Below, one piece after another: positions 1 to 59,284 of a stretch of 64,000 nt of DNA (positions within the stretch are counted from its first letter, which is position 1; each line of letters opens with the position of its first letter). Below the pieces are notes generated by a model that saw only the letters and a list, made by a program, of their open reading frames with translations, did not search any database and had not been told where the DNA came from. The translations under genes were made by a program, and so were the position numbers. Origin of the DNA: Planctomycetota bacterium (GTDB lineage: Bacteria; Planctomycetota; UBA1135; UBA2386); NCBI GenBank assembly GCA_965228735.1, contig OZ245838.1:2176001-2240000 (forward strand), given 5' to 3'.

Positions 1-513
1 TACGCGTTCGAGCAGATGAGCCTCACGGGCAGCGGCGGCGGCGGCAACGGCCACATCGTCGGCTACTCGCCGGGCGGCATCTCGCTGCGCCCGGCCGAGC
101 TCGACCTCAGCACGGCGCTGCTCGCCTCGATCTCGGTCGACGCCGCCGACGGTCAGGAGCTCACGCTGTCCGCCGACGCGCGGCCGCTGCTCGGCTCGTC
201 GATCAACGTCGTGACGCTCGACGTGCCGGCCACGGCGGCGCTCGGCGTGCAGATCTTCGGCCTCAACCAGGTCAACCCGGGGACGGACCTCGCGGCGTTC
301 GGCATGGCCGGCTGCCGGCAGTACCTGAGCACGGACGCGAGCGGCATCCTCGTCCCGGTCGGCGGCACCGCGTCGTGGCCCGTGAACACCCCGACGTCCG
401 CCACGTTCGCCGGCGTCGCGATCTTCGCGCAGTCGCTGATGCTGGTTCCGGGCGTCAACCCGTTCGGCGCCCTCACGAGCAACGGCGTCACGCTGCGCTT
501 CGACGTCAATTAG
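1..513 (+). CDS. 3' part of a probable secreted/surface protein carrying a conserved C-terminal domain (5' truncated by window edge)
   Basis: Frame open from base 1 (YAFEQMSLTG...). The C-terminus RPLLG...DVPATA...GCRQY...FAQ...VPGVNPFGALTSNGVTLRFDVN aligns with the C-terminus of the 56762..59284 protein. Confidence 0.8.
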   Translation, partial: YAFEQMSLTGSGGGGNGHIVGYSPGGISLRPAELDLSTALLASISVDAADGQELTLSADARPLLGSSINVVTLDVPATAALGVQIFGLNQVNPGTDLAAFGMAGCRQYLSTDASGILVPVGGTASWPVNTPTSATFAGVAIFAQSLMLVPGVNPFGALTSNGVTLRFDVN

Positions 514-13886: not shown

Positions 13887-15479
13887 ATGCACTCCACGAT
13901 GTTCTCCGTGACCGCGATGCTCGCGTTCACGTTCGCCGTCCACGACGCCGCCGCGCAGGCGACGTCATGCCCCCCGGCCGTCTACTTCGGGTTCCACCAG
14001 GAACGCGTCGGAGCCGTCCTCGTCAGCGAGGGCAGCGAAGCCCTGTTCGGCCACGGCAACGGCTGGAACTGCGGGTTCTTCGCGCGCCACCGCGACGACT
14101 ACTGGCGCCGCACGACGCTCATGGGCGGCGTGGGCCCGAACTACGGGACGGCCGGTGCCAGCGCCGCGTTCGAGAACGGCGTCGTGCTGCTCGGCGATCC
14201 GCAGGAGTACTCGATGCCGGGCTTCTGGCAGCAGTCGCCGAACGGCTCCGCGATCATCTACGAACGCGTCAACGGCACGTGGACCCGGACCGCGCAGTTC
14301 TACCCGCAGAACCCCGTGCCCGGCGCCTCGGGCTACGCCTACTACGTCGCGCTCGAGGACGACGGCACGCGCGCGGTCGTCGCGGCGAGCCGCACGAACG
14401 CGGGCGGCACGATCTACGTCTACCACAAGCAACCGTCGGGCTGGGCGCTCGAGCAGACCATCGACGGCAACTCGCTCACGCCACCCGCCGTGCTCGACGG
14501 CCCGGTCGCGCTGACCCAGGGCCACCTGTTCCTCGCATCGCGCACGAGCTACTTCCCGGCGCCGGGGCCCGGCGAGGTGCGCGTGCTCACGCGGCAGAGC
14601 GGCACGTGGACGGAGGTCGCCACGCTCGCGCCGCCGCAGCTGTCCCCGACCGCGCGTTTCGGGGTGTCGATGGCCACCGACAGCGGCCACGCCGTGATCG
14701 CGTCCGTCGTCCAGCCGTACCCGAACTCGACCGCGCAGGGCATCGTGTTCGAGTACGACACGAGCCTGCCAAACTGGACGACCCAACCGACCGTGATCTC
14801 GCTGCCGACGAGCAGCACGACGACGCTGTTCGGACGGTCACTCGACCTCGACGGCGACCGCCTCGCGATCGGCGCGCGCGACGAGGCCTTCGTCTACGAA
14901 CGCGGGCCGACCAGTTGGCAGCGGACCGTGCGGGTCGTGCCACCGCCGACCGGCTTCAGTTCGCAGTTCGGCCAGGCGGTCGCGCTGTTTCCCGACGGTC
15001 TGCTCGTCGGCGATCCCACGCACGACGACGACCCGTGGCAGTACCCGGACAACCCCGGCGGCGTGCACGCGTTCGACCTCACGGACTACGGCCGGGAGTT
15101 CCAGGGTTGCGGCCGCGGTGTCGCGATCGAATGGGGCGGCACGCTGACGATGCGCGTCCGCTGGCCGCAGCAGGCGAACAACAGCTACCAGGTGTTCGGC
15201 TCGTTCACCGGCTTCGGGCCGACCGTCGTCCACGGCGTGCCGATCCCGCTCACGCAGGACCTCTACACGAGCGTGCTGATCGCCAACCCATCATTCATCA
15301 CGGGCGGCACCGGCATGCTCAACCAATGGGGCGCGGCCAACCTGACGTGGAACGTCCCGCAGGGCCTGCCGGCCTCGCTCGACGGCGCGCAGTTCCATCA
15401 CGCCATCGTCGCGTGGGACAGCAACGGCACGCTCGCCGCGAGCAACGCGATCACGAGCGAGCTCGTGAAGATCTACTGA
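13887..15479 (+). CDS. Secreted FG-GAP-like beta-propeller protein with a C-terminal sorting-like domain
   Basis: Signal peptide (AAA-Q); repeats FGVSMA, FGRSLDLDGDRLAIGA, FGQAVAL...LLVGDP; C-terminal domain ending AASNAITSELVKIY; GGAAGGA RBS upstream. Confidence 0.8.
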   Translation: MHSTMFSVTAMLAFTFAVHDAAAQATSCPPAVYFGFHQERVGAVLVSEGSEALFGHGNGWNCGFFARHRDDYWRRTTLMGGVGPNYGTAGASAAFENGVVLLGDPQEYSMPGFWQQSPNGSAIIYERVNGTWTRTAQFYPQNPVPGASGYAYYVALEDDGTRAVVAASRTNAGGTIYVYHKQPSGWALEQTIDGNSLTPPAVLDGPVALTQGHLFLASRTSYFPAPGPGEVRVLTRQSGTWTEVATLAPPQLSPTARFGVSMATDSGHAVIASVVQPYPNSTAQGIVFEYDTSLPNWTTQPTVISLPTSSTTTLFGRSLDLDGDRLAIGARDEAFVYERGPTSWQRTVRVVPPPTGFSSQFGQAVALFPDGLLVGDPTHDDDPWQYPDNPGGVHAFDLTDYGREFQGCGRGVAIEWGGTLTMRVRWPQQANNSYQVFGSFTGFGPTVVHGVPIPLTQDLYTSVLIANPSFITGGTGMLNQWGAANLTWNVPQGLPASLDGAQFHHAIVAWDSNGTLAASNAITSELVKIY

Positions 15480-23324: not shown

Positions 23325-25724
23325 ATGACGGAATTCGCAACGCTTCCTGCCGCCATCCCGCCCGCCGCGGCCCGCTTGAACGGCACCCGGTGGCTTCCGG
23401 CCCTGCTGGTGCTGCTCACGGTGGTCCTCGCGGCGGCTCCGCTCGCCGCCCAGAACGACCCGCCCGGGGGCAACCAGGGCGCTGGCCAGGACCCGGGCGG
23501 CCAGCCGCTGATGGAGGTCGACGGCGACACCATCGTGGTCTCGATGAGCGAGAGCTCCGGGCTCGAGTTGCCGGAGTTCGTCAAGTGGGCCCAGGTCGTC
23601 ACCAAGCGCGTCTTCACGTTCAACGAGAACGAGATGATGAACCAGGCACAGGGCGGCAGCCGCGTGACGTTCCTCGGCAGCCTGCGGTTCAAGCGCGCCA
23701 CGTTCGACAAGGACTTCTTCTCGTTCTTCCAGACGATGCTCTACATCAAGGGCTTCGCCATCGTCCCCCGCGGCGAAGGCGATCTCGAGATCCTGGAGAT
23801 CATCTCGACGAACGGGCCGCGCATCCGCGAGGTCACGAACGGCGCGCGCTACGTCACGCCGGACGAGCTGGAGGAATACAAGAACCAGACGGGCGTGCCG
23901 ATCTTCACGACGGTCCAGCTCAAGCACATCAACGCGACGATCGTCAACAACGCGCTGCGCCCGTTCTTCGCGAGCACCGGGTCGCCGCAGGGCGGCGGTG
24001 GCGTGACGATCGGCAACGTCGGCAACCAGACGGCGATGTTGCTGCAGGGCTACGGCCCACAGGTCTACGCCGCGGTCAAGCTGCTCGACCTCGCCGACCA
24101 GCCGGTGGACGCCCCCAACCTCGTCGTGCAGGTCGTGCCGCTGCAGCACGCCGCCCCCGAGGAGATCGAGCCGATCCTCAGCGAGGTGCTCGAGAGCCGC
24201 AACCGCATCCGGGCGCAGGTCCTCGCCGAGAACCGGCAGGGTGGCGCGGGTGCCGCGGCGACCAACAGCCAGCCGCAGCTGAAGATCGTCGTGAACAGTT
24301 CGCAGAAGTCGCTCGTGCTGAGCGGCATCGCGGACCACGTGAACGAGGCGTTGAGCCTGATCGCGCAGCTCGACAACCCGAGCCAGATCATCGAGGGCAC
24401 GGCGAGCGTCATCTACCTCAAGAACGTGCTCGCCGAGGACCTCCGGCAGACCCTCAACCAGTTCATGCAGGAGGACAACAACGCCGAACAGCAGGCCCAG
24501 GCCCAGCAGGCCGGCAGCACGCCGAGCCGGCGCACCCGGCGGACGGTCATCCAGGCCCACGACGAGAGCAACAGCCTGCTGATCTCGGCGGCCCCGACGA
24601 AGTATCAGCAGATCCGCGCGCTGATCGACAGCCTCGACGTGCGCCAGCCGCAGGTGCTCATCGAGTGCGCGCTCGTCGAGCTCACGACGGGCGACCTCGA
24701 CCGCTTCGGTGTCGAACTCGGCCTGCTCGACCTGCCCAACGGCTCCAACGACTACGAGCGCGGCTTCGGCTTCACGGACTTCGGTCAGGCGGTGTTCCAG
24801 GACACCGACGACGACGGCCTGCCGGACACGCGCCTGCCCGACTTCGACAACATCGCGCAGGGCCTCACGGGCGGTATCATCAGCGGCCAGGACTTCGCGG
24901 TCCCGATCCTGATCAACGCGCTCGCGACCGACGACTCGGCCAACATCCTGTCGCTGCCGAGCGTCCTCGTGAACAACAACGAGGCCGCGGTCGTCACGAC
25001 GGAGGAAGAGCGTCCGACGCTGGAGAACAACGTCGGCACGGCGACGACGACGACCGGCACGGGTGCGCCGCGTAACGCGGGTATCACGCTCGAGATCTCC
25101 CCGACGATCTCGCCCAACCGCTACCTGCGACTCAACATCAGCCTCGAGGTGTCGCGCTTCGTCGGCGCGTTCGATCCGAGCTCCGCGACCGGTGGCGGTA
25201 TCGTGCTGCGCCGCTCGATCCGCACGCAGGTGACGATGCCGACGGAGTCGACGATGATCATCGGCGGCGTCATCGAGGACAGCGAGTCGAGCAACGAGGG
25301 CGGCATCCCGTTCCTCAAGGACATCCCGATCCTCGGCTACCTGTTCAAGAGCATCGAGAGCGAGTCGAGCAAGACCAACCTCTACTTCTTCGTCACGCCG
25401 ACGATCCTCGACGAGGACGACTTCCAGGACCTCTGGCATCTGAGTCTGCAGAAGAAGCTCGAGGCCCAGAACTACATCGGTGAACGCCGCCTGCGGATCA
25501 TCGACAAGCGCTGGACCGGCTCGGCCGGCGACCAGGCGCGCCGCCTCGAGGACGAGGGCGCGACGGTCGAGGATCTCGACGCCCAGGGCGGCTTCGAGAT
25601 GCCGCTCTACGATCGTGGCATGACGCCCGCCAACTCGCCGCTCGCCCCGGGCTCGCCACAGCCGGGCCCGGCCGTGCCGCAAACCCAGAGCGGTGGCAAC
25701 CAGGGCGCCGGGAACCAGAAATGA
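23325..25724 (+). CDS. gspD: Type II secretion system secretin GspD
   Basis: Signal peptide, N-domain repeats (VQLKH, VVPLQHA, VIYLKN), PQVLIE, IIGGVI, GIPFLKDIPILGYLFK, NLYFFVTPTI; upstream of gspE-F. Confidence 0.9.
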   Translation: MTEFATLPAAIPPAAARLNGTRWLPALLVLLTVVLAAAPLAAQNDPPGGNQGAGQDPGGQPLMEVDGDTIVVSMSESSGLELPEFVKWAQVVTKRVFTFNENEMMNQAQGGSRVTFLGSLRFKRATFDKDFFSFFQTMLYIKGFAIVPRGEGDLEILEIISTNGPRIREVTNGARYVTPDELEEYKNQTGVPIFTTVQLKHINATIVNNALRPFFASTGSPQGGGGVTIGNVGNQTAMLLQGYGPQVYAAVKLLDLADQPVDAPNLVVQVVPLQHAAPEEIEPILSEVLESRNRIRAQVLAENRQGGAGAAATNSQPQLKIVVNSSQKSLVLSGIADHVNEALSLIAQLDNPSQIIEGTASVIYLKNVLAEDLRQTLNQFMQEDNNAEQQAQAQQAGSTPSRRTRRTVIQAHDESNSLLISAAPTKYQQIRALIDSLDVRQPQVLIECALVELTTGDLDRFGVELGLLDLPNGSNDYERGFGFTDFGQAVFQDTDDDGLPDTRLPDFDNIAQGLTGGIISGQDFAVPILINALATDDSANILSLPSVLVNNNEAAVVTTEEERPTLENNVGTATTTTGTGAPRNAGITLEISPTISPNRYLRLNISLEVSRFVGAFDPSSATGGGIVLRRSIRTQVTMPTESTMIIGGVIEDSESSNEGGIPFLKDIPILGYLFKSIESESSKTNLYFFVTPTILDEDDFQDLWHLSLQKKLEAQNYIGERRLRIIDKRWTGSAGDQARRLEDEGATVEDLDAQGGFEMPLYDRGMTPANSPLAPGSPQPGPAVPQTQSGGNQGAGNQK

Positions 25725-27469
25725 CCGAGACCCCCGTCAACCCGAGTTTCATCAGCGCCGGTTCCAACGACCGCATCCGCGAGGGCTTCCTCCGGCGTGC
25801 GGGTCTGAGCCAGGCGCAGATCAACGAGGCGCTGAATGCCGAGCGTGAGACCGGCCAGCAGCTCGATCAGATCCTGATCGGCAAGAACCTCCTCGCCGAG
25901 ACACCGTGCCTCGAGCTGTTCTCGGAGTTCCTCGGACTCGAGTTCCGAAAGAGCCTCGACGGCGCCCAGGTGCCGGGCGACTTCATCCAGAACGTGCCGG
26001 TTCAGTTCGCCCGCACGCACGGCCTCGTCGCGATCGAGGACGTCGGCGCGGTCGTCAAGGTCGCGACCAACCGGCCGCTCGAGGTCCAGCCGATGGACGA
26101 CCTCGCGACGATGATGGGCCGCGAGGTCGAGGCCGTCCTGACGACGCGCAGCGAGGTCGCCAACCTCATCAACCGCGCCTACCGCCACAAGGCGGACGGC
26201 GTCGACGAGGCGCTGCAGGACGTCAAGGACACGGACATCATCAGCATCGCCGAGAACATCCAGGAGTCGGAAGACCTCCTCGATGCCAACAAGGCGCCGG
26301 TCATCAAGCTGGTGAACATGCTGCTGTTCCAGGCGCTCAAGCTGCGCGCCTCGGACATCCACCTGCAGCCCTACGTCGACCGCGTGCAGGTGCGCATGCG
26401 CATCGACGGCGTGCTCTACGACATGGAGTCCATCCCGAAGCGCGCGCAGGAGGCGATCGTCTCGCGCGTCAAGGTCATGGGCAAGATGGACATCGCCGAG
26501 CGCCGCCTGCCGCAGGACGGACGCGCGGCGATTCGCATCGGCGACGGCGACGTCGACGTTCGCATCAGCACCGTGCCGGTCGCGGGCGGCGAGCGCATCG
26601 TCTTCCGAATCCTCGACAAGACGAGCAAGGTCTACTCGCTGGATCAGATCGGCCTCGAGCCGGACGAGTACCGCACGATCTCGCGGTACATCAACTACTC
26701 GCACGGCATCATCTTCGTCACCGGCCCGACGGGTTCGGGCAAGACGACGACGCTGTATGCGTGCCTCGACGAGATCAACGCGCCCGACCTCAACATCCTG
26801 ACGATCGAGGACCCCGTCGAGTACAACCTCGACGGCATCAGTCAGGTGCAGGTGAACACGAAGAAGGGCCTGACGTTCGCCGCGGGCCTGCGCTCGTTCC
26901 TGCGTCAGGATCCGGACGTGATGATGGTCGGTGAGGTGCGCGACGCCGAGACCGCCGACATCGCGATCCGCGCGGCGCTCACGGGCCACCTCGTGTTCTC
27001 GACGGTGCACACGAACGACTCCGCGTCGACGGTCACGCGCCTCATCGACATCGGCCTCGAGCCTTACCTCGTGTCGTCGTCGCTGCTGCTCGTGATCGCG
27101 CAGCGCCTGCTGCGCACGATCTGCCCCAACTGTCGCGAGCCGGTCGATCCGGATCAGAAGCAGCTGCACATGCTCGAGGATCTCAAGCTCACGCCCGACA
27201 ACTTCGACGGCGGCAAGCTGCTGGTCGGCAAGGGCTGCGACGAGTGCTTCAACTCGGGCTTCGCGGGCCGCACGGCGATCTACGAGGTCATGCCGATCGA
27301 CACCGTGATCCAGAACCAGATCGTCGAGAAGTCGACGGCCAGCGCGATCAAGCGCGGCGCGATCGAGCGCGGCCTCAACACGTTGCGCATGAACGGCGTG
27401 AAGAAGCTGCTGCAGGGCCACACGACCCCCGAGGAAGTCGTGCGCGTCACGCAGCTCGACGTAGTCTAG
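25721..27469 (+). CDS. gspE: Type II secretion ATPase GspE
   Basis: [58 protein letters not shown], tetracysteine motif. Confidence 0.93.
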   Translation: MTETPVNPSFISAGSNDRIREGFLRRAGLSQAQINEALNAERETGQQLDQILIGKNLLAETPCLELFSEFLGLEFRKSLDGAQVPGDFIQNVPVQFARTHGLVAIEDVGAVVKVATNRPLEVQPMDDLATMMGREVEAVLTTRSEVANLINRAYRHKADGVDEALQDVKDTDIISIAENIQESEDLLDANKAPVIKLVNMLLFQALKLRASDIHLQPYVDRVQVRMRIDGVLYDMESIPKRAQEAIVSRVKVMGKMDIAERRLPQDGRAAIRIGDGDVDVRISTVPVAGGERIVFRILDKTSKVYSLDQIGLEPDEYRTISRYINYSHGIIFVTGPTGSGKTTTLYACLDEINAPDLNILTIEDPVEYNLDGISQVQVNTKKGLTFAAGLRSFLRQDPDVMMVGEVRDAETADIAIRAALTGHLVFSTVHTNDSASTVTRLIDIGLEPYLVSSSLLLVIAQRLLRTICPNCREPVDPDQKQLHMLEDLKLTPDNFDGGKLLVGKGCDECFNSGFAGRTAIYEVMPIDTVIQNQIVEKSTASAIKRGAIERGLNTLRMNGVKKLLQGHTTPEEVVRVTQLDVV

Positions 27470-27537
27470 CAGCCCCTTCGTTCGCCTGACCGCCTCCGCC
27501 TGACTCTGCGCCCGACAGCCGTCCGCTTCGCCACCTG

Positions 27538-28764
27538 ATGCCGATCTTCGAATACAAAGCGATCGACTCCGCCAACAAGGTGAAGCGCGGCATCATCGAT
27601 GCCGACACCGCGCGTGATGCCCGGCAGCGCCTGAAGAAGGACTCGCTGTTCGTCACGGACATCAAGGAGTCCCGCAAGAAGCGCAAGTCGGCCGTCGCGA
27701 TCAAGGGTGTCACGGGCGTCGACGCGCCGAACAAGATGCGGCTCGAGCAGATCGGCGCCGTGACGCGCCAGATGGCGTCGCTCCTGCAGGCCGGCATCCC
27801 GCTCGCCGAGGCGCTGCGGATGATCATCGAGCAGGCACCCGACAAGAAGATCGAGAGCACGTTCCGCGACATCCGCGAGAAGGTGACGCAGGGCATGACG
27901 CTCGGCGACGCCGTGCTGCAGCACCCGGCCTACTTCACGCCGCTGTATTCCAACATGGTCAAGGCCGGCGAGTCCTCGGGCGCGCTCGACAAGGTGCTCG
28001 TTCGGCTCAGCCAGTTCCTGCAGGCCCAGACCCGCCTCAAGAACAAGGTCGGCGCCGCGCTGATCTACCCGTCGATCATGGTCATCGTCGGCGTCATCGT
28101 CGTCGCGATCCTCATGGTCGCCGTCGTCCCGCGCGTGACCCAGCTCATCAAGGGCCGCGGCCAGGACCTGCCGCTGCCGACGCAGATCCTGATCTCGACC
28201 TCCGACTTCCTCGTCAACCAGTGGCTCACGGTCATCGTGGCGCTGCTGCTGCTGACGATCGGCTTCCAGCTGTTCATCAACAGCGACAAGGGCCGACTCG
28301 TGTGGGACCGCTTCAAGCTGCGCGTGCCGGTCTTCGGCGACCTGATGCGCAAGCAGGCGATGGCGCGCTTCTCGATCACGCTCGCGACGCTGCTGCGCTC
28401 GGGCGTGCCCGCGCTGCAGGCGATCAACGTCACGAAGAACGTCCTCGACAACAAGGTCCTGAAGAACGCGCTGCAGGAGGTCCACGACCGCGTCGTCGAG
28501 GGCACCGACCTCGCGACCCCGATGAAGATGTCGGGCGCGTTCCCCCCCACGGTCTCCTACATGGTGGGCGTCGGCGAACAGGCCGGCAACCTCGAGGAGA
28601 TGCTCGAACGCATCTCGGCGAGCTACGACGAAGAGGTCGAGCTCGCGACGCAGAAGCTGACGTCGGTGCTGGAGCCGCTGATCATCGTCGCGCTGGCAGT
28701 CGTCGTCGCGGGCATCGTGGTGGCGATCGTCATGCCGCTGCTGCAGCTCCAACGGACCGGCTGA
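27538..28764 (+). CDS. gspF: Type II secretion inner-membrane platform protein GspF (PilC family)
   Basis: MPIFEYKA, QMASLLQAGIPL, AGESSGALD, ALIYP, GEQAGNLEEML, LEP; three TM helices. Confidence 0.92.
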   Translation: MPIFEYKAIDSANKVKRGIIDADTARDARQRLKKDSLFVTDIKESRKKRKSAVAIKGVTGVDAPNKMRLEQIGAVTRQMASLLQAGIPLAEALRMIIEQAPDKKIESTFRDIREKVTQGMTLGDAVLQHPAYFTPLYSNMVKAGESSGALDKVLVRLSQFLQAQTRLKNKVGAALIYPSIMVIVGVIVVAILMVAVVPRVTQLIKGRGQDLPLPTQILISTSDFLVNQWLTVIVALLLLTIGFQLFINSDKGRLVWDRFKLRVPVFGDLMRKQAMARFSITLATLLRSGVPALQAINVTKNVLDNKVLKNALQEVHDRVVEGTDLATPMKMSGAFPPTVSYMVGVGEQAGNLEEMLERISASYDEEVELATQKLTSVLEPLIIVALAVVVAGIVVAIVMPLLQLQRTG

Positions 28765-34152: not shown

Positions 34153-35616
34153 GTGATCGACCCTCACAACATCCTGGCCGGCGCGATCCTCCTGCTGCTG
34201 CCCGGGTGCCTCCTCGAGCCGCCGCCGGCGCCGCCGCCGATCGTCACGGTCGCGGTCGACTACGAGCTGCGCGACCCGCAGCGCGATCCGCTGCCGGTAG
34301 GCGCTGGGGCCAGCGGTAACGAGTCCGGGCCAGAGCCCGTGCACGTGCGCGCCAGCCTGCATTGGCTGGGGTCCGCGACCGGCGCGGCGACCCCGACGCA
34401 GGACGCCGCGGTCAGCCCGCCCTTCGGCGAGCCGCTCGATACCCGCATCGAGACGGTTTTGTCGCGGCGCGGCGAACCGTTCCGCGCGGGCACGACGCTG
34501 CTGCGCGGCCTCTGGCTCGCGCCCGAGGCGGGCATCGAACTCGGACCGATCGCGAGCTCGGCGACCGCCACGGTCGCGCAGTCGTTCGCCGCGGTGCTGC
34601 ACTTCCCCGGTGCGGCGCTGCCCGAACTGCTCGTGCTGCGGGACGTCGCGGGCCTCCGCATCGCGGTGCGCGCGACCAGCGCAGCGCGCGCCAACGCCGA
34701 GCACGACGCCCCCGAACGCCTGGCGGCAGCGGAGCGCCACGACCTGGCAGCGGACGCCCCCGAGGAGCTCGCCCGGCTGCGGCCGTTCGATCTCGCCGCG
34801 GGCGAGGCGCTGACCATCGTTCGACCCGCCCTCGCGCGCCCGGGCGAGCGGCCGATCCCGCCGCTCGCGCTCGTGCTCGAACTCACCGGGCCCGCTCCGA
34901 CCACCGCCGTGCGCGCCGTCGACGACCGGCTCGCCGAACGCGCGGCCAACCCCACGACACCGCCACCCGTGATCGCGCAGAGCGAGCTTGCGCGCACCGC
35001 GATCGGCGCCCGCCCGCGGCGCGGGGCCCTGATGGCACTCACCGCGCGCTACGACCTGGACCACTGCCTCGACATCCTGCTCTGCGTCGGGGAACGCGAC
35101 CTGATCGCGCTGTCCGACGGCATGCCCGACCTGCCACGCGCCACGTCCGTCGCGCTCGATCCGGCGTTGCCGGCGCCGGCTTCGACCGCGGCCGAATCGA
35201 GTGACCGGCCGGCACCGCGGCCGACCCGAGCCGAGAACGCGTGGCGGATCGAGCAGGCGTTCTTCACCGCGCTGCTGCCGCGGCTGCAGCGCGGTGAGCT
35301 GCCGCCGCAAGCCGTCACGGCCATGCGGCGTCACCTCGGCGTCGTCGCGATCGATCCGACGGCGCTGGAGTTCGCGCTCGCGACGAGCCCGGACCACGTG
35401 GCCTTCCGAGCGGCGGTCCGCACCGAGAACGAACGCGGGCTCGCGGACCGGCGCGCGCGCAATCGCCTGCTCGCACAGGATTGGCTCGCCGGCCGCGGCA
35501 TCACGGTGCCGGGCTTCGACCCGCTCGCGCCCCGGGCCACCCGCAAGGCGGCGCTGCACGCGTTCCGCCGCGCACGCGCCGCGGCGACCGAATCGTCGAT
35601 GGAGGGCGGCCGATGA
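34153..35616 (+). CDS. Hypothetical lipoprotein
   Basis: GTG start, hydrophobic stretch with lipobox-like LPGC; ATGA overlap with the downstream gene. Confidence 0.6.
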   Translation: MIDPHNILAGAILLLLPGCLLEPPPAPPPIVTVAVDYELRDPQRDPLPVGAGASGNESGPEPVHVRASLHWLGSATGAATPTQDAAVSPPFGEPLDTRIETVLSRRGEPFRAGTTLLRGLWLAPEAGIELGPIASSATATVAQSFAAVLHFPGAALPELLVLRDVAGLRIAVRATSAARANAEHDAPERLAAAERHDLAADAPEELARLRPFDLAAGEALTIVRPALARPGERPIPPLALVLELTGPAPTTAVRAVDDRLAERAANPTTPPPVIAQSELARTAIGARPRRGALMALTARYDLDHCLDILLCVGERDLIALSDGMPDLPRATSVALDPALPAPASTAAESSDRPAPRPTRAENAWRIEQAFFTALLPRLQRGELPPQAVTAMRRHLGVVAIDPTALEFALATSPDHVAFRAAVRTENERGLADRRARNRLLAQDWLAGRGITVPGFDPLAPRATRKAALHAFRRARAAATESSMEGGR

Positions 35617-38600
35617 CCGCCGCGCCCGACTCCGGCCCCGGGCCCGAACGCCGCGGCGGCCCGCAGCCCCCGACTCCAGCGGAAGCGACTCCGGCCGAGG
35701 GCGCCGGCGATTCCACGGCGACGAACGCCGACCAGCGCAAGCCGCGCAAGCGCCGCCGCTGGCGCCGGCTCTTCGCCTGGTTGCTCGCGGTGACCGTCAT
35801 CGCCCGCATCGTGCTCGGCATCTTCCTGCCGGACCTCGTCGCCTACGGCGTCACGTTCGCGGGCCTCGCGGGCCGCTGCGCCAACGCGGAGCTGTCGCTG
35901 CTCGGCGGCTCGGTGCGACTGCAGGGTCTCGAGCTGCACGATCCGGACGACCCCGAACACGGCCCCCGCCTGACGTTGCTGGAACTCGGCGCCGACGTCT
36001 CGACCTGGCAGCTGCTGCAGGGTGACATCGTCATCGACGACGCGGTGCTGCGGAGCGCGCAGCTCGTGCTGCACCGGCGAGCGGATCGGTCGTTCGTGCT
36101 GCCGGCCGCATGGACCGCGCCGAGCCCCGAACCCGAGCCGGAACCCGAGTCCGAGCCCGAGGCAGGGCCGATGTCGACCGAGCTGCCGCTCCGCATCGCG
36201 ACGGCGCGGATCCACGACCTGCGCCTGCGCATCGTCGAGCTCGACGGCCGGCGCGCGCCGATCGACGTCGTGCTCGATCTCGATATCGACGACGTCGGCA
36301 GCCGCGACGTGCCCGGTCATCTCGAGCTGCGACTCGCGGCCGACGGGGTCGCCGACCGCGTCGTGATCGGGGCGCAGTTCGACACGCCGGGCAAGGACGC
36401 CGAGGGCGGCGGCGGCGGCATCCGGGTCGACTCGACGATCCTCGCGCACGGCCTCGACCTGGCGCCGCTCGTGCCCGCTGCGGAACAGCTCGGTGTCATC
36501 GACGTCGAGCTCGCGGCCAAGATCGCGCTGCTGCCCGATCCCGCGGTGCCGGATGGCGCGCGGCTGCAGACCACGCTCGAACTGCACGACTCCCCGGCGA
36601 TCGCACGCACGCTGACGGCCGATGTCGGCGCCACGTTCGACGCCGCGGGCGGCATGGACTGCAGCGCGGCGATCGACGCGACGGGCATCGTTCTCGAGCC
36701 GCTGGCGGAGTTGCTGCGCGCCAGCGGCGTGACGTTCGTCGAGGACGGGATCGACGCTTCGGCCCGCGCGAGCGCCAGACTGCCCGGCGCGGATCCCGAG
36801 GCCGCGACGCCGGCCGGGATGGACCTGCGCGTGCACGACGTTCGCGTCGGCACGGGCGACGACGTGATCACGCTCACGGATCTCACCGTCGAACAGCTGC
36901 GGCAGACCGGGGACGGCCTGCACATCGCCGCGGTGCGAGCCGTTGGGCCGACCGCGAGCGCGGCGCAGCGACCCGACGGCAGCCTGGCGATCGCCGGCAT
37001 CCGATTCGGAGCCGCTGCGACCCCGACCGGGGCAGGAACCGGTGTCGCGCCGACGTCCGAACCGGCTGGGCCGGTTGCTGAACCGGCTGGGCCGGTTGCT
37101 GAACCGGCGGCGGATCCGGCCGCGGATCCGGCTGCTGGGCCGGCGGCGACGGGGGCGGCGCTGCCGACGATCATTCTCGACGAGCTGGACTGGCGTTCCG
37201 CGACGCTGGCGCTCCTCGATCAACGCCAGCCGGACGCCGAGCCGTTGACGGTCGAGGTGCAGACCCTGACGGGCCAGGGCCTCGCGTGTGCCTGCGACCG
37301 CGACGAAGGCACCGCCAACCTGCACGTTCGCGTGCCGGGCATCGCGGACGCGTTGCGGGTCCAGCTGCAGGTCACGCCGCAGGCCGGTGGCGCCCACGTC
37401 GAGGGCGATATCGAACTCGAGGACCTCACGACGACGGGGCTCGCGCGGTGGCTCGCGCCGCTCGGCATCGAGCCGACCTTCGCGACCGCGCAACTGCGCA
37501 CCGACCTCGTGGCCGACATCGGCGGCGCGGGCGAGAACGCGAGCGCGTCCGGTCGCATCGCCAACCTGCGCTTCACGACCGGCGACGATCTGCTGCTCGG
37601 GCTGAAGAACCTCGAACTCGACGACCTGCGGCTGCACCACGAGGGTCTGAAGTTCGCCAGCGTGAGCGCAGCGGAGCCCATCGTGCGCATCGAACGGTCC
37701 AACGCGGCGATGACGGTCGCGGGGCTGCGATTCGGGCGACCATCCGCGGCTCCGGCGCACACGACGCCGCCCGCCACGCCGCAGCCCGCAACTCCGAAGC
37801 CCGGGGCGCCAGCCGGCCCGGCGCGACCGCTCGTGCTCGACACGGGCCCGATCACGCTGGAACGCGCGACGGTGCACCTGCACGACACCGGCCCGAACCC
37901 GCGCACGAGCACCATCGGGGTCGATCTCGAACTCGGCGCGATCGCGGGCACCGGACTCGCGGCGTTCGCGCAGCCCGTGCCGTTCGCCCTGACCGTGCAC
38001 CTCGACGAACGGGTCGAGGCGCTCGGCCTGCGCGGCCAGCTCGCCCGCACGCAGGATCAGCTCACCGTGTCGGGGACGCTCGATGGCACCGGCATTCGCG
38101 GCACCGCGCTCACGCGCCTGCTGCCGGACGGCATGCGGTCGCCGCTCGCGAACGGCCGCATCGGCGCCGAGCTCGAGGTGCACATCGCCCCCGGAATGAG
38201 CGCGCTCGACGTCGCGGTGCGCGAGTTCGCGCTGCACGACGGTGACGAAGAGCTGGCGGCGATCGACCGGATCGAGTTCGTCGCGCCGCAGCTCGGCAGC
38301 GACACGGTTCACATCGAGAAGGCCGTCGTGGCCGGGGTGCGCGCCAAGGTCGAGAAGTCCGCGGCCGGGCTGCTCGTGCCGGGCCTGCTCATCGCGGACG
38401 CCGCCGCACCCGTGGACGGCGAACCCGCGCAACCGAACGCGCCGAGTCCGAACGCGCCGAGTCCGGCCGAGGCCGCCCCGACGTCGACCGAACCCGCGAC
38501 CGTCCCGCCGCCGATCAGCGTGCCGACGACGCGTGCACCCGGCGCCGGCCTGCCCGCGCTGCGCATCGACGAGCTCGCGGTCGCGCTCGACGAACTCGTG

Positions 38601-40655
38601 TGGCACGACCGGACGGTCGCCGGCTCCGAGCCGCTGCGGACCGCGTTGCGCATCGAGCTGGCGGCGCCCTGGCGCACCGCCGAGGAGCTCGACGAGACCG
38701 CGCCGCTCGAGCTGCGCATCCGCGGCGGCGCGGCCCCGATCGTCTCGGAGATCGCGCTCGACCTGCTGCTCGAACCGTTCGCCCTGGCGCCCGTGTTCGA
38801 CGCCAAACTCACGATCGACGGGATCGACACGACGGCGATCGAGCAGATCGCGCCGGCGATGCGCGAGACGCTGACCGGCACGGAGACCGGGGCGCGGCTG
38901 ACGCTGCACACGCACGCCGAGATCGACCTGGCGCGCACCGACCCGACGCAGTTCGACCTGTCGCGGCCGTTCGGCGGCGCGGTCCTGGTCGAGGACCTCG
39001 AGTTCACCGCGACGGACGGCGAGCCGCTGATCCGGGTGCCCGCGCTCGACGTGACGCTGCGCGCATTCGACCCGCGCACGGGTGACGTGCTGCTGCGCAG
39101 CGTCGACCTCGACGCGCCGCACGTCGTCGTGCATCAGGGCAAGGACGGCCTGCAGGTTGCCGGTGTCACGCTGCGCCCTTCCCCGGCCGCCCCCGCCGGC
39201 GGCGAACCCGCGGCCGAGGCCCCCACACCGCGCACGGCTGCGGAGCTCGACGCCGAACGGCGCCGCGGCCCCGCGCCGGAGTTCGCCGTCGACGACTTCA
39301 GCCTGTTCGGCCTGAGCGTGCGCTTCACGGACGACACGACGGACCCGCCGACGCTCGTCCCGATCGACGAGCTCGACGTCTCCCTGCGGCGCTTCTCGAC
39401 GCGGACGCTGACCGAGTCACGGCAGTTCGCGTTCGACGTGACGCTGCGCGGCGGCGACGTGCCGCTCGAGAAGCGCGTCGCCGCGAGCTCGGTGCTGTCG
39501 GGCATCGTCGGTTCGACCGCCGATCTCGTCACGTTCCGGAACGACGAACACGCGATCGAGCAACGCTCGTTCGTCGACGAGATCCTCATCGACGGTTACC
39601 TGCAGCTCCACCCGATGCCGCTCGGCCACGTGACGACCGTCGTGCACGGCTTCGAGCTGCAGACGCTGCGCGGCCTCGCCAAGCCTTCGGGCGTCGACAT
39701 CGCCGACGGCCTCTTCGACGCCAGGATCGACGCGGAGCTCACCCAGCGCGGCACGCGCATCGAGAGCCAGAAGACATTCACGTTCTTGCAGGTCTCGGAA
39801 CCGCCGGGCGGACCGATCTCGACCTACCTCAAGCTGCCGGCCCCGCTCGATGTCGTGCTGTTCATCCTGCGCAACGACAACGGCGAGCAGCGGCTGCCGA
39901 TGCAGCTCGAGGTGCCGCGCACGGGCGACCTCTTCGGTGGCATCGCGACCGCCGCGGTCGAGACGCTGACGCTGCTCATCGGCGACGCGATCGGCAGCTC
40001 GCCGTATCGCGCGGCCCGCACGCTGACGGACATCTTCGGCATCACGGGGCAGGACGCGATCGACGCGACGCCGGCGGCGCTCGAGTTCGCGCCCGGCAGC
40101 GCGACCACCGTGTTCGAGCCGCTCGCGAAGTTGCTCACGGCATACGGCGACGACCCGACCGTCAGCTTCGTCATCACGCACGAGCTCGGCCAGCAGGACT
40201 ACGACCGGGTCGCAGAACTCAGCAACCCCGACCGCGCGCTCGCCGAGCAGAGCGTGGCCCGCCTGCAGCTCGAGCGGCAGAACCTGCGGGACGAACGGAC
40301 CCGCATCGCGCCCGAGGTCACGGCCCGCCTGCTCGCCGGCCAGGAGCCTGCGGCGCGCCGAAAGATCGAGCGCCTGCGGGAGATCGACGCGGAGCTCGCG
40401 GCCATCACCGCGGCGCTCGACGCCGCGGCGACGCTGTTCGACGGCTCGTCCGACCGGCACCAGAAGCGGCGCGCGCGACGGGCCGCGATCGAGCTCGGCG
40501 AGCTCCGCATCGCCACGGTCCGCGCCGAACTCGAGGCCCGTCTCGGCCCCGGCATCGGCGACCGCCTGCAGATCCGCCGGCCGCGCGGGGTCATCGCCGC
40601 CGACCGACCCGAGGGCGGTCGGGTGACCCTCGTTCCGCGCCGCGCGAACCACTGA
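35613..40655 (+). CDS. Large AsmA-like/DUF748 repeat protein with a C-terminal OmpA-like segment
   Basis: N-terminal basic stretch plus TM; repeated beta-groove motifs (IILDELDWRSATLALLD, IDELAV..LVWHD, VDDFSL..VRFTD); LRNDNGEQRLPM; LEFAPGSA...LGELRIATVR. Confidence 0.75.
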   Translation: MTAAPDSGPGPERRGGPQPPTPAEATPAEGAGDSTATNADQRKPRKRRRWRRLFAWLLAVTVIARIVLGIFLPDLVAYGVTFAGLAGRCANAELSLLGGSVRLQGLELHDPDDPEHGPRLTLLELGADVSTWQLLQGDIVIDDAVLRSAQLVLHRRADRSFVLPAAWTAPSPEPEPEPESEPEAGPMSTELPLRIATARIHDLRLRIVELDGRRAPIDVVLDLDIDDVGSRDVPGHLELRLAADGVADRVVIGAQFDTPGKDAEGGGGGIRVDSTILAHGLDLAPLVPAAEQLGVIDVELAAKIALLPDPAVPDGARLQTTLELHDSPAIARTLTADVGATFDAAGGMDCSAAIDATGIVLEPLAELLRASGVTFVEDGIDASARASARLPGADPEAATPAGMDLRVHDVRVGTGDDVITLTDLTVEQLRQTGDGLHIAAVRAVGPTASAAQRPDGSLAIAGIRFGAAATPTGAGTGVAPTSEPAGPVAEPAGPVAEPAADPAADPAAGPAATGAALPTIILDELDWRSATLALLDQRQPDAEPLTVEVQTLTGQGLACACDRDEGTANLHVRVPGIADALRVQLQVTPQAGGAHVEGDIELEDLTTTGLARWLAPLGIEPTFATAQLRTDLVADIGGAGENASASGRIANLRFTTGDDLLLGLKNLELDDLRLHHEGLKFASVSAAEPIVRIERSNAAMTVAGLRFGRPSAAPAHTTPPATPQPATPKPGAPAGPARPLVLDTGPITLERATVHLHDTGPNPRTSTIGVDLELGAIAGTGLAAFAQPVPFALTVHLDERVEALGLRGQLARTQDQLTVSGTLDGTGIRGTALTRLLPDGMRSPLANGRIGAELEVHIAPGMSALDVAVREFALHDGDEELAAIDRIEFVAPQLGSDTVHIEKAVVAGVRAKVEKSAAGLLVPGLLIADAAAPVDGEPAQPNAPSPNAPSPAEAAPTSTEPATVPPPISVPTTRAPGAGLPALRIDELAVALDELVWHDRTVAGSEPLRTALRIELAAPWRTAEELDETAPLELRIRGGAAPIVSEIALDLLLEPFALAPVFDAKLTIDGIDTTAIEQIAPAMRETLTGTETGARLTLHTHAEIDLARTDPTQFDLSRPFGGAVLVEDLEFTATDGEPLIRVPALDVTLRAFDPRTGDVLLRSVDLDAPHVVVHQGKDGLQVAGVTLRPSPAAPAGGEPAAEAPTPRTAAELDAERRRGPAPEFAVDDFSLFGLSVRFTDDTTDPPTLVPIDELDVSLRRFSTRTLTESRQFAFDVTLRGGDVPLEKRVAASSVLSGIVGSTADLVTFRNDEHAIEQRSFVDEILIDGYLQLHPMPLGHVTTVVHGFELQTLRGLAKPSGVDIADGLFDARIDAELTQRGTRIESQKTFTFLQVSEPPGGPISTYLKLPAPLDVVLFILRNDNGEQRLPMQLEVPRTGDLFGGIATAAVETLTLLIGDAIGSSPYRAARTLTDIFGITGQDAIDATPAALEFAPGSATTVFEPLAKLLTAYGDDPTVSFVITHELGQQDYDRVAELSNPDRALAEQSVARLQLERQNLRDERTRIAPEVTARLLAGQEPAARRKIERLREIDAELAAITAALDAAATLFDGSSDRHQKRRARRAAIELGELRIATVRAELEARLGPGIGDRLQIRRPRGVIAADRPEGGRVTLVPRRANH

Positions 40656-55828: not shown

Positions 55829-56665
55829 TCAGAAGATCAGAGCCTGCGGCGGTGGCCCGAAGCGGATCGTCCCGCCCACGAACACACCGCTCAGATCGAG
55901 GTCGGCGTCGAAGTCGCGGCCGGACGCGCTGCCGAACACGTCGAGCACGAGGTGGCGATACCCGGCGATCAGATCGACGGTGTCGGACACGCGGACGCGG
56001 CCGCCGAGTTCGATGTCCCAGTAGCGACCGTTCGCGTCCCCGAAGTCGGCGGCCATGATGCCGGACTGACCGACGAGGGCAAAGTCGCCGTAGCGCGCCT
56101 CGAACTCGGCGAACGGCATCGGGACGAGTGAGTACGACTCGACCTCGTCGGCGCCGAAGCCGGCGATGGCGCGCGTCCGCACGTCGAGGATCGTGTAGCC
56201 GAGCTGGCCGCCGAGCCCCACGTGCCAGTTCTCGCCGCCGAGCACCTCGTAGGTGTACGAGATCCCGCTCGTGAAGAAGTCGAGATCGGACGCGACCTGC
56301 GTGCCGGCCGCGATGCTCCCGAAGTCACCCGCCAGCGAACCCTCGCCCGCCGTGCTGAACCCGGTCGCGTGGGCGCGGATTCGGTGCGCCTCGTGCTGGA
56401 ACGTCACGCGCCCGAACGGCGCCGGCTCGACGTCACCGAGACCGAGGTTGCTGCCGACCGAGTTCTGCTGGTCGTGCAGCACGAGCCCGCCGCCGGGACT
56501 CTGCAGCGCGAGGTCCCCGTTCACCGCGGCGAACAGCGGCGCGACGTCGATGCGCACCTCGTAGGTCGCACAGCTCTGGAGCACGGCGGCGGCGAGCAGA
56601 ACGGCCGGCAACAGTCGCCGGGCGGCGACGGGAACTGCACCTCGGGAGCGCGGACGATGGGACAT
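55829..56665 (-). CDS. Probable outer-membrane beta-barrel protein with a lipoprotein-type signal
   Basis: LQSC lipobox-like motif; alternating amphipathic strands; AGYRHLVLD...LSGVFVGGTIRF beta-signal-like segment. Confidence 0.6.
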   Translation of the reverse strand: MSHRPRSRGAVPVAARRLLPAVLLAAAVLQSCATYEVRIDVAPLFAAVNGDLALQSPGGGLVLHDQQNSVGSNLGLGDVEPAPFGRVTFQHEAHRIRAHATGFSTAGEGSLAGDFGSIAAGTQVASDLDFFTSGISYTYEVLGGENWHVGLGGQLGYTILDVRTRAIAGFGADEVESYSLVPMPFAEFEARYGDFALVGQSGIMAADFGDANGRYWDIELGGRVRVSDTVDLIAGYRHLVLDVFGSASGRDFDADLDLSGVFVGGTIRFGPPPQALIF

Positions 56666-56761: not shown

Positions 56762-59284
56762 TCAATACTCGCCGATCGTGCCCCGCAGACCGTTGCTCGC
56801 GGCCAGCGAGAACGCGTTGACACCGGGCACGAACGCGCCGCCCTGCGCGAACAGATCCATGCCAACGAACGTCGGGCTCATCGGGATCGGCTGCCGGAAC
56901 AGCGGCCGCGGGGCCGGCGTCGGGAAGAACAGCGTCGCCACGCCGCCCGTGTAGATCGTGCAGCCCGGGGCCGCCGGCCCGATGAGCTGGCTCTGCCCGA
57001 CCAGGTCGAGCTGCAGGAACGCGAGCCCGGCCGTGGCCGGCACCCCGTCGAGCGCGAGCACCCAATCGCGGCAGAGGATCGGCCGCGTGAGCGCCGCGAT
57101 CGTGACGCCGTTGCAGCCGCTTCCGAGCGACTCGTTGGTTGCGAATTCCACCGCCGGCTCGGCCGTGAGGTAGAGCAGCGAGAACCGGGAATCCGCGGGC
57201 GCCCCCGTCGGCCCCCAGGTGCGGACGTCGACCATCGTGCCGGTCTGACCGGGCGGTGCCGCGGTCCACGACTCGACCGATGCGTGCGTCGGTGTCGAGC
57301 CGTGCGCCGTGACCTGCACCCCGGCCCCATCGATCGGCGCAACGTTGGGCAGGTGCACCCGATAGTGCCCGGTCGCGAGGCGCATGATCGACTCGGCGTC
57401 GTCGGGCCCGAACGTGCCGTTGCTGTCCGTGTAGGTCGCGTGGGGCGTGTAGCTGCTCGCGGTGGCGTGGTTGGCCCACACGTGGGCGCCCGAGCCCAGT
57501 TCGTCCACCATCGGCGACGCGACCTCGTTGTAGCTGCAGTAGAACCGCCCATCGATCGGGTTGCCCGCGAAGTCGAAGCACCGCACGTTGACGAGCACGT
57601 CCGAGCCGGACGTGTACCACGACTGCACCTTGGCCCGCATCGGGCTGAACGTGAACGGCGTCACCTGCGCGTTGCCGCCCTCGGGACCGGTCGTTCCGAG
57701 ACCGGGGAAGCGCACCTGGTAGACCCCGGTGCCCGATCGTGAGATCACCGGCAGCCCGCGATCGCCGTTCCACGAATGGGCCTCGAGCGGCGTGTGAACG
57801 GGCGCCGTCGGACTCGAGTGCCAGCAGTAGGCCGACTTCTCCCGCCGGTCGCCGTACGCGCAGTAGTAGAACGTGAACGGCGAATCCCCGGTCAGCGCCC
57901 CGCCAGCGGTCCACGTTCGCAGCTGGGCGGTGATGTCACCGCTGTTCGGGCCGCCGGCGGCGACCGCGGCGGTGTGGTTGCTGCCGTGGGCGGTGACGTG
58001 CATCACGCCGAACGAACCGTCGGGCGTCCGCCCAGCACCCGGCACCCGGATCCAGAAGACGCCGGGCGTCGTGCTCTTGGTGATCTCGATCGACTGGCCG
58101 GTGCTCGAGTACTGGTGCGTGCTCGGCGGCGAGAACACCGTGGGCTGCCCCCGCGGATCGACACTGGCCCACGCGATCACCGGTTTGCTGGCCGGCCGAT
58201 TCGTCGTGTAGCGCAGCAGGAAACGCGTATCGACAGGGTTGCCCGCGAACGTGAACGTCTCGACCAGGACCTCCGCGCCGCCACAGCCGTCACCGTTCCA
58301 GCGCTCCAGCGTGGCGTAGTAGTTCGAGAAGCCGTAGGTCGTGACCTGCGCGTTCGAGCTGTTGGCTCCGACGACGCTCGGCAGCGACACGCGGTAGCGC
58401 CCGACGCCGAGACGTTCGATGGTCTCCTCGCCGGCCGGTCCGTCGCGCCCGTTGCTGTAGCGGTACGTCGCGTTGGCGCGGTAGAACGGCTCGGTCGCCT
58501 GGTTCGCGAACAGGTGCGTACCCGAGCCCTCGTACGGATCGATCATGACGTCGGTCTCGTTGTAGCTCAGGATGAAGTAGCCGTCGGCGAGCACGCCATT
58601 GGCGTCATGGGTCCGCACCGTCACGACGAGGTCGGTGCCGATCGCCGACCAGCCGGCGACGTTGGCCCGACTGAGCGACGGGCCCCACGGAGTCACCTGG
58701 GCATGGCCCAGAACGGCCGGGCTATTGGCCAGGCCCGGCAAGAGCACCGCGTACTGCCCCGTCCCGGTCCGCGTGATCGACGGGTCGGCACGGTTGGCGT
58801 TCCACGAGTACGTGAGGTTCGGGACGTAGTTCGCCGTCGTCGGCTGATTGGCCCAGAGGTGAGCCTGCCGCGCGTCGAACCCACCTTCGCACTCGAACGC
58901 GAACGAGAAGTTGGCGTCGTTCGCCGGCGCGCCGGTCGGCGTGTAGAGGAAGATCGTGGCGCGAAGCTCGCCGTTGCTGACCCCCCAGTTGCTGACCACG
59001 GCGATGTGGTTGCCGTCGTGCGCCGTCGCGTGCACGACTCCGCCCGACGGCATTCCCGGCACGCGTACGACGAAGCCGTGGTTGCCGCTCGGATGGCGAT
59101 CGACGACGACCGTCGAACCCGAGGAGGAGTATTGCCACGCCGGCGACGGGACGAACGAGGCGCCCTGATTCGCGGGACTCACCCAGGCCCAGGCCGTGTC
59201 CTGGGCCGTAGCGGCCGCCGTCGTGAACATGGTGACGGCCGCCGTGTACACGGCGGCCAGGAACGTCGTCGGGGATGCTTGCAT
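56762..59284 (-). CDS. Secreted 840-aa protein with six ~115-aa beta-rich modules and a conserved C-terminal domain
   Basis: ATG 59284 with signal peptide (AAATA-Q); internal repeats; C-terminal domain homologous to that of the 1..513 protein. Confidence 0.8.
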   Translation of the reverse strand: MQASPTTFLAAVYTAAVTMFTTAAATAQDTAWAWVSPANQGASFVPSPAWQYSSSGSTVVVDRHPSGNHGFVVRVPGMPSGGVVHATAHDGNHIAVVSNWGVSNGELRATIFLYTPTGAPANDANFSFAFECEGGFDARQAHLWANQPTTANYVPNLTYSWNANRADPSITRTGTGQYAVLLPGLANSPAVLGHAQVTPWGPSLSRANVAGWSAIGTDLVVTVRTHDANGVLADGYFILSYNETDVMIDPYEGSGTHLFANQATEPFYRANATYRYSNGRDGPAGEETIERLGVGRYRVSLPSVVGANSSNAQVTTYGFSNYYATLERWNGDGCGGAEVLVETFTFAGNPVDTRFLLRYTTNRPASKPVIAWASVDPRGQPTVFSPPSTHQYSSTGQSIEITKSTTPGVFWIRVPGAGRTPDGSFGVMHVTAHGSNHTAAVAAGGPNSGDITAQLRTWTAGGALTGDSPFTFYYCAYGDRREKSAYCWHSSPTAPVHTPLEAHSWNGDRGLPVISRSGTGVYQVRFPGLGTTGPEGGNAQVTPFTFSPMRAKVQSWYTSGSDVLVNVRCFDFAGNPIDGRFYCSYNEVASPMVDELGSGAHVWANHATASSYTPHATYTDSNGTFGPDDAESIMRLATGHYRVHLPNVAPIDGAGVQVTAHGSTPTHASVESWTAAPPGQTGTMVDVRTWGPTGAPADSRFSLLYLTAEPAVEFATNESLGSGCNGVTIAALTRPILCRDWVLALDGVPATAGLAFLQLDLVGQSQLIGPAAPGCTIYTGGVATLFFPTPAPRPLFRQPIPMSPTFVGMDLFAQGGAFVPGVNAFSLAASNGLRGTIGEY

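Follow-up and report, generated by a model that had tools for sequence, protein, structure and literature searches.

Modules shared by many unrelated exported proteins are known from several systems. PEP-CTERM and GlyGly-CTERM tags consist of a short motif, a transmembrane helix and a basic tail. SLH domains, dockerins and choline-binding repeats are non-covalent envelope anchors that are retained at either terminus of a protein and share a common envelope ligand. The C-terminal domain (CTD) of T9SS cargo is 67-108 aa long and has a conserved lysine in its last strand (PMC11285876, accessible part). Signals for T2SS are thought to be structural, and Pel3 has a composite one that is distributed over loops of its chain (PMC7949064, accessible part).

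We analyzed a window of 64,000 nucleotides from a Planctomycetota bacterium (contig OZ245838.1, positions 2,176,001 to 2,240,000 of the forward strand); the window means this whole stretch. A first-pass annotation had reported that the last ~120 aa of one protein align with those of a second, otherwise dissimilar one, that a third ends in a looser variant, and that the shared part might be an uncharacterised export or surface-attachment tag. The relevant features are:

1..513, + strand: 3' end of the gene for a 500-aa exported protein; start 989 bases upstream of the window, domain at ~136-513
13887..15479, + strand: 530-aa FG-GAP repeat protein; divergent domain subtype at ~15072-15479, with a helical insert and no Cys pair
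23325..28764, + strand: gspD-gspE-gspF of T2SS, a possible exporter, not specific to domain-rich genomes
55829..56665, - strand: small predicted outer-membrane beta-barrel, neighbour of the flagged gene; weak TIGR04219 match, below cut-off
56762..59284, - strand: gene for the flagged exported protein of 840 aa, made up of a signal peptide, a repeat passenger and the terminal domain
56762..57142, - strand: its terminal domain, main type with Cys pair, predicted Ig-like sandwich, 126 aa plus stop
57143..59203, - strand: its passenger, 687 aa, no Pfam or NCBIfam match
59204..59284, - strand: its predicted Sec signal peptide, 27 aa, by sequence heuristic (not SignalP)

The tails of the flagged protein and the 1..513 protein are related and their passengers are not. 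The last 123 residues of the 840-aa protein align with the 1..513 protein by BLASTP (36 of 121 identical, 30%, E=2e-8), and the Smith-Waterman score of 105 was reached by none of 2000 shuffles (shuffle maximum 75). Pairwise comparison of the three window passengers gave no similarity (best E 0.13). The five motif pairs that had been quoted for the two tails are all present in the translations. Both proteins have a predicted signal peptide, which in the 1..513 protein lies in the part encoded upstream of the window; that of the 840-aa protein ends in ATA followed by QD, and the predicted mature chain starts with Gln. Its passenger belongs to a repeat family with six to seven paralogues in the genome (38-45% identity), all of them carriers of the domain; by eye, its two halves look alike, with Trp/Tyr-rich motifs recurring in both.

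The tail of the FG-GAP protein is a divergent subtype of the domain. Pairwise comparison was not significant (its scores were reached by 190 and 445 of 2000 shuffles). It matched the main profile over positions 21-117 with E=7e-4 (best reversed control 0.011) and a second profile only with E=0.21. A structural model of the subtype keeps the strand order of the main type and adds a helical insert (pLDDT 67), and the subtype defines a 19-member set that has three members in common with the main set. No fourth carrier was found in the 64-kb window, for which up to three had been reported.

Two public runs, each from a different study, have contigs that match the segment 55700-59400 letter for letter. 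One RNA-library contig spans 327 bases of the flagged passenger, which is not a demonstration of transcription. Elsewhere in the window, at 34153-40655, a 487-aa predicted lipoprotein without a Pfam match precedes a DUF748 (AsmA-like) protein of 1680 aa; each is present in a single copy. The genome also has a type VI secretion cluster (G000:C1:3575185-3592811, partly L023) with TssF/G-, ClpV-, VgrG- and PAAR-like proteins by eye, along with pentapeptide-repeat proteins.

The domain is carried by hundreds of proteins in this genome, most often at the C-terminus. A jackhmmer search of the genome's ORFs, seeded with the flagged domain and run to convergence, matched 290 ORFs and no reversed ORFs. 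The domain ends no more than 7 residues before the stop in 268 of these matches, is followed by 17-44 extra residues in 12, and is N-terminal or internal in 10, so that 280 of 290 copies (97%) lie at or near the C-terminus in an unbiased search. With the subtypes and with a search restricted to C-termini, which added 31 proteins that are terminal by design, the total rose to 372 carriers, far more than the three originally flagged; 366 of them are among the 5283 called genes (7% of genes, 9.8% of coding DNA). By position, 348 are C-terminal, 12 have a short C-terminal extension, 11 are N-terminal, and one is internal. Eleven carriers have nothing but a signal peptide and the domain; these stand-alone copies diverge no less than the other copies do and are scattered over the genome. 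The strict C-terminal position that had been proposed as a test does not hold. Each carrier in this genome has one copy of the domain per chain.

The passengers are diverse, as had been anticipated. The 339 that were scored fell into 119 clusters, 87 of them singletons. A Pfam family was found in 39 of the 87 passengers scanned and in none of the other 48 (95 were fetched). The types include Kelch, FG-GAP and DUF5122 propellers, trypsin, S8, M14, beta-lactamase-like, sulfatase, MauG (di-heme peroxidase) and LamG. The first-pass annotation had listed observations that would speak against its proposal: a Pfam match, internal or cytoplasmic occurrence, and few copies. The domain has no Pfam match, is not rare and is not on cytoplasmic proteins; one internal copy exists.

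The domain matches no catalogued family. Searches against Pfam, NCBIfam and PDB sequences gave no family match (best PDB E 0.061), none of 88 domains matched Pfam or NCBIfam models, including Por_Secre_tail, FlgD_ig and CHU_C, at E<=0.1, and its Atlas neighbours are Planctomycetota clusters without a name (0.97). We found no description of the domain in a literature search whose coverage mostly lay outside subscription journals, and the accessible part of PMC11032199 does not mention such a domain.

The main type is predicted by AlphaFold to be an all-beta, Ig-like sandwich with seven core strands and an insert (pLDDT 96). The best Foldseek matches of this model were ML lipid-recognition domains (E 6e-4, TM-score 0.43, 11% identity), and a wider fold search returned generic Ig/FN3 domains (best Z 8.5). 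The comparison with T9SS CTD or FlgD-Ig folds that had been suggested thus yielded the Ig-like seven-strand fold and no T9SS CTD structure among the 50 matches listed, and a likeness may still exist. The absence of a transmembrane or basic tail that had been noted agrees with the all-beta model, with the terminal residues, which are varied and include no conserved last residue over 340 copies, and with the lack of an NCBIfam match; a transmembrane segment was predicted in 7 of 306 carriers.

Sequence conservation is confined to a few positions. Mean pairwise identity among copies is 22-24%. Over 340 copies, Pro87 and Gln100 are present in more than 90%, Gly24, Gly94, Ser/Thr116 and Asn117 are frequent, and lysine makes up 0.2% of residues. 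The two cysteines co-occur (both in 149, neither in 30, one in 17). In the same 340 copies, polar and non-polar residues alternate along strands 1, 2 and 5. Both sides of strand 3, strand 4 and the intervening insert are non-polar, which may only mean that this face is buried beneath the insert loop. We found no conserved surface aromatics, and a Pro/Ser/Thr/Gly-rich linker preceded the domain in none of 113 scored carriers.

The domain is all-or-none by family within Planctomycetota. Sixty of 301 sampled genomes of the phylum have a match: 55 with many copies, in 16 families, and five with one or two. Presence was complete in the families tallied (4/4, 7/7, 2/2, 2/2, 1/1, 5/5, 2/2 and 6/6). 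Five distant genomes have 18 to 145 matches among the best 150 scored; at their loci, 27 of 29 proteins carry the domain C-terminally and 2 of 29 N-terminally, with one tandem pair (L070). Genome G177 has 13 carriers (12 C-terminal) in the 1.13 Mb analyzed of its 2.4 Mb, and this portion shares 139 envelope-type proteins with G000, one of which was profiled. Five related genomes had no match with all candidates scored. Searches outside the genome sample returned 18 and 6 proteins, and those with a named source are from Planctomycetota. Taken together, these results support the existence of a terminal domain that is uncatalogued, restricted to a lineage and shared by hundreds of diverse proteins with signal peptides.

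A quick, unfinished tree of a secretin pair described below placed all domain-rich genomes in one clade, along with four domain-poor ones whose placement is tentative (MnmG was not found in 9 of 30 genomes and was dropped as a tree marker). Kinship accounts for the co-occurrence of any gene of the clade, and phylogenetic profiles should therefore be read with care.

MauG-like carriers occur in three hosts outside the domain-rich group (P0017, G187 and G220) and are 45-49% identical to G000 carriers. Here the domain is internal, and the chain goes on into an additional tail, which is of the FlgD-Ig type in P0017 and 320 aa long in G187 and G220. Because the single copies in G265 and G279 stay terminal, the extra tail in foreign hosts is a hint and not a rule. 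The 320-aa C-terminal tail, which has no Pfam or NCBIfam match, was found on at least two proteins of G187 and on one of G220 (L066:517-1431, L067, L117) and is possibly a terminal tag of family f57.

The carriers are a low-charge class of exported proteins. Using home-made heuristics for signal peptides and gene starts, we found a signal-peptide-like start in 281 of 306 carriers, compared to 1724 of 4030 other genes, and the expected co-occurrence with signal peptides was borne out; in most of the 28 carriers missed by the heuristic, the signal lies upstream of a mis-called start. The domain is on 175 of 213 exported proteins with <15% charged residues and on 6 of 805 with >21%. In paired comparisons, which are not independent of each other, 27 of 30 carriers were less charged in the aligned part than domain-less non-lipoprotein homologues (14.8 versus 20.0%). 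Judged from composition, the low-charge class probably belongs to a different compartment, outside the cell. Five low-charge exported proteins (G000:C1:891893, 2954019, 5689978, 5970101 and 7038004) have, in place of this domain, a different shared terminal one, which looks MAM-like by eye.

Carriers also tend not to be lipoproteins. A strict lipobox was found in 1 of 317 carriers and in 80 of 1314 others (Fisher p=7e-7). Among 54 non-carrier homologues of carriers, 10 are lipoproteins, one of which is homologous to 11 carriers, and 35 are plain signal-peptide proteins; six were judged to be unrecognised carriers and were excluded from the paired charge test. The exclusion is not absolute, because four to six carriers resemble lipoproteins by eye. 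Both the scarcity of lipoproteins and the low charge are as compatible with an export tag as with an anchor.

Most carriers (94%) have a small residue followed by Gln at the predicted start of the mature chain, a pattern seen in 56% of other exported proteins and in 21% of the remaining proteins. This placement of Gln directly after the predicted signal peptide resembles the Q-rule, which is described as specific to Bacteroidetes (PMC5837995, accessible part).

We propose that the domain may be a retained, non-cleaved, non-covalent envelope-docking module, a reading to which we give about an even chance on the sequence patterns and models above; the docking site would most likely be the outer surface. 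Carriers would be exported by Sec, with predicted cleavage of the signal peptide before Gln, and would then fold and form disulfides in the periplasm, giving a sandwich that is polar on one face and non-polar on the other. They might cross the outer membrane by one of the accompanying secretin (T2SS-type) machines, after which the non-polar face or the insert loop could bind a common envelope ligand, either an outer-membrane lipid or a surface layer. Such a module would do for much of the extracellular proteome what SLH domains, dockerins or a lipid anchor do elsewhere. We consider docking most likely because of the N-terminal, extended and stand-alone copies, the lack of a linker, the scarcity of lipoproteins among carriers and the non-polar face. 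Of the two functions first suggested, attachment fits better than a cleaved export tag because copies are also N-terminal, internal, extended or stand-alone; the description as an uncharacterised, lineage-restricted tag on exported proteins stands, and its cleaved version is weakened. The C-terminal bias (280 of 290) is not needed by an anchor and is needed by an export signal, and docking module and export tag could both hold.

The main alternative, tentative and rather less probable than docking, is that the folded domain is a portable export address, not necessarily cleaved or anchoring, that is read by a secretin machine (T2SS or the twin-secretin and pseudopilin systems described below). 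This reading would explain the strong C-terminal bias and the near-complete tagging of the low-charge secretome. It is also consistent with the seven-strand Ig-like core, as in the T9SS CTD (PMC11285876, accessible part), with the structural nature of T2SS signals (PMC7949064, accessible part), and with the extra tails on carriers in foreign hosts. The Fn3 domain of Pel3 ranked third in the wide fold search (Z 8.0, residues 22-108, 82 aligned, rmsd 2.5), a lead only, since this value lies inside the generic Ig/FN3 crowd. Stand-alone copies have nothing to export.

The distribution of secretin machines is compatible with such an address and is not specific. The T2SS of the window had been named as a candidate partner: its GspD was found in 24 of 25 domain-rich genomes, but also in 15 of 23 domain-negative ones. 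G000 has seven secretins. One operon (L025:4102-18999; G000:C1:6769699-6784599) has the order secretin (882 aa), TPR (949), TPR (390), ExbB, ExbD, ExbD and second secretin (839), and appears to encode a secretin pair coupled to an ExbBD motor; a literature search on this combination found no matching paper. The odd secretin of this machine is in 39 of 39 domain-rich genomes and, at E<1e-77, in 11 of 41 others. The TPR protein seemed specific (14 of 39 versus 0 of 41), but the operon keeps its order in many Planctomycetota families, whether or not they have the domain (L139-L178), and we rejected the operon as a dedicated partner. A divergent type IV filament cluster (L239, G000:C1:1397583-1414788; L193) has genes for an FHA protein, a PilM-like (Amuc_1101-like) protein, a 904-aa TPR protein, pseudopilins and a 1735-aa GspK-like protein. 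A gene of this pseudopilin cluster was found in 25 of 25 domain-rich genomes but also in 11 of 23 others, and was likewise rejected as a specific partner. In G025, G033, G034, G074 and G279, the last gene of the cluster lies 20-45 kb from the twin-secretin genes on one contig, and because of this the two are possibly one machine.

Other candidate partners did not co-occur with the domain. The barrel gene directly downstream of the flagged gene, the second candidate put forward originally, was found in 16 of 39 domain-rich genomes versus 12 of 41 others, its orthologous loci had a carrier in 0 of 10 cases, and we rejected it as an obligate partner. The barrel is one of five 250-aa paralogues, and most of these are lipoprotein-like in having a Cys close to the predicted start of the mature chain. 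A POTRA-less Omp85 was also rejected (6 of 39 versus 8 of 41). Based on these profiles, an exporter is available, and no dedicated machine was identified among the handful of candidates profiled.

An improbable alternative is that the domain is a self-associating building block, such that domains and stand-alone copies polymerise and the resulting lattice, on the surface or in the periplasm, displays the passengers. The 11 stand-alone proteins, the non-polar strands and the one tandem pair would suit a lattice. However, the mean pairwise identity is low for a shared interface, and the stand-alone copies are scattered and no less divergent than the others. A homodimer prediction for the domain (score 0.01) counts neither way.

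Even less probable is a T9SS-like tag that a PorU-like C25 transpeptidase would remove, linking the cargo to a surface glycolipid. The Gln after the signal peptide in most carriers is as in Bacteroidetes (PMC5837995, accessible part), and 19 of 26 domain-rich genomes encode C25 proteins, of which two match PorU/PorU2 models with scores under the cut-off (PorU model scores of C25 proteins 101-135 bits versus a cut-off of 420). However, no C25 protein was found in 7 of 26 domain-rich genomes, including the single-contig G157, and 3 of 4 domain-poor relatives do have one; the C25 protein of G000 is both divergent and isolated. C25, although common, is neither obligate nor specific, and was rejected as a partner. 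PorV was found in 0 of 31 genomes with a positive Bacteroides control, and the N-terminal and stand-alone copies and the lack of a linker also argue against cleavage. SprA had no matches in G000 in a search whose control was also silent, as was the control of a TIGR04183 search. We note C25 proteins of ~870 aa with signal peptides and sub-cut-off PorU/PorU2 matches in planctomycetes without PorV (L240-L243; L024:2146-4467). The one exosortase in G000 lies within a polysaccharide locus.

Least probable of all is an ordinary accessory module (carbohydrate- or substrate-binding, or a folding aid) spread by shuffling with no sorting role, since the generic Ig/FN3 fold and the tolerated internal position in transferred MauG proteins are outweighed by one copy per chain, an almost always terminal position, presence on 7% of genes of unrelated chemistry, the lack of conserved surface aromatics and the all-or-none distribution by family.

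Whether as docking module or address, the domain labels most of the predicted extracellular proteome in a large, barely studied branch of Planctomycetota, including propellers, proteases, sulfatases, heme enzymes and many unknown folds, and the proteins that these bacteria display or release can be predicted with a single profile. T9SS and sortase-like systems were found through terminal tags of similar prevalence. A ligand or reader, if found, would define a new protein-targeting route in diderm bacteria and would bear on how planctomycetes equip their unusual envelope. The farthest-reaching reading, which we regard as somewhat doubtful, is that ~16 uncultured Planctomycetota families independently evolved delivery on the scale of T9SS, with a portable Ig-like tag read by a secretin and without T9SS parts. 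With the same reservation, up to 7% of the proteome might be routed across the outer membrane onto the surface, and the reader could possibly be the twin-secretin/TPR/ExbB/ExbD machine with the pseudopilin cluster.

The domain combines properties of several known systems. It resembles PEP-CTERM/exosortase and GlyGly-CTERM/rhombosortase in that a single kind of terminal module is shared by many different exported proteins and its presence follows lineage, and differs in being folded and without a helix; the arrangement of motif, helix and basic tail was not found. It shares with ML domains (GM2 activator, NPC2, Der f 2) a disulfide-bearing beta-sandwich with non-polar surfaces, a match that is a lead only, being absent for the subtype model and from the top 50 of the wide search. 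With T2SS substrates it has in common folded, periplasm-matured cargo (as predicted) in a genome with T2SS genes, and with the Fn3 domain of Pel3/PelI an Ig/Fn3-like fold; unlike the signal of Pel3, it is one domain common to hundreds of cargoes. Like SLH domains, dockerins and choline-binding repeats, it occurs at either terminus of diverse exported proteins, with a different fold, no sequence match, a single copy per chain, a diderm host and a ligand that is putative here. The T9SS CTD of Bacteroidota and other FCB (Por_Secre_tail PF18962/TIGR04183; FlgD-Ig PF13860) has the same Ig-like seven-strand core, the same C-terminal position on very many unrelated Sec proteins with low identity among copies, and the same Gln at the predicted mature N-terminus. 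In contrast to it, the planctomycete domain is 125 aa long and almost without lysine, has a Cys pair and a non-polar insert, is also N-terminal and stand-alone, and occurs where PorV was not found; there is no sequence match between the two, and P0017 carries both the domain and a FlgD-Ig tail. Based on these comparisons, we conclude that the domain is not a T9SS CTD by membership, though it is deployed like one.
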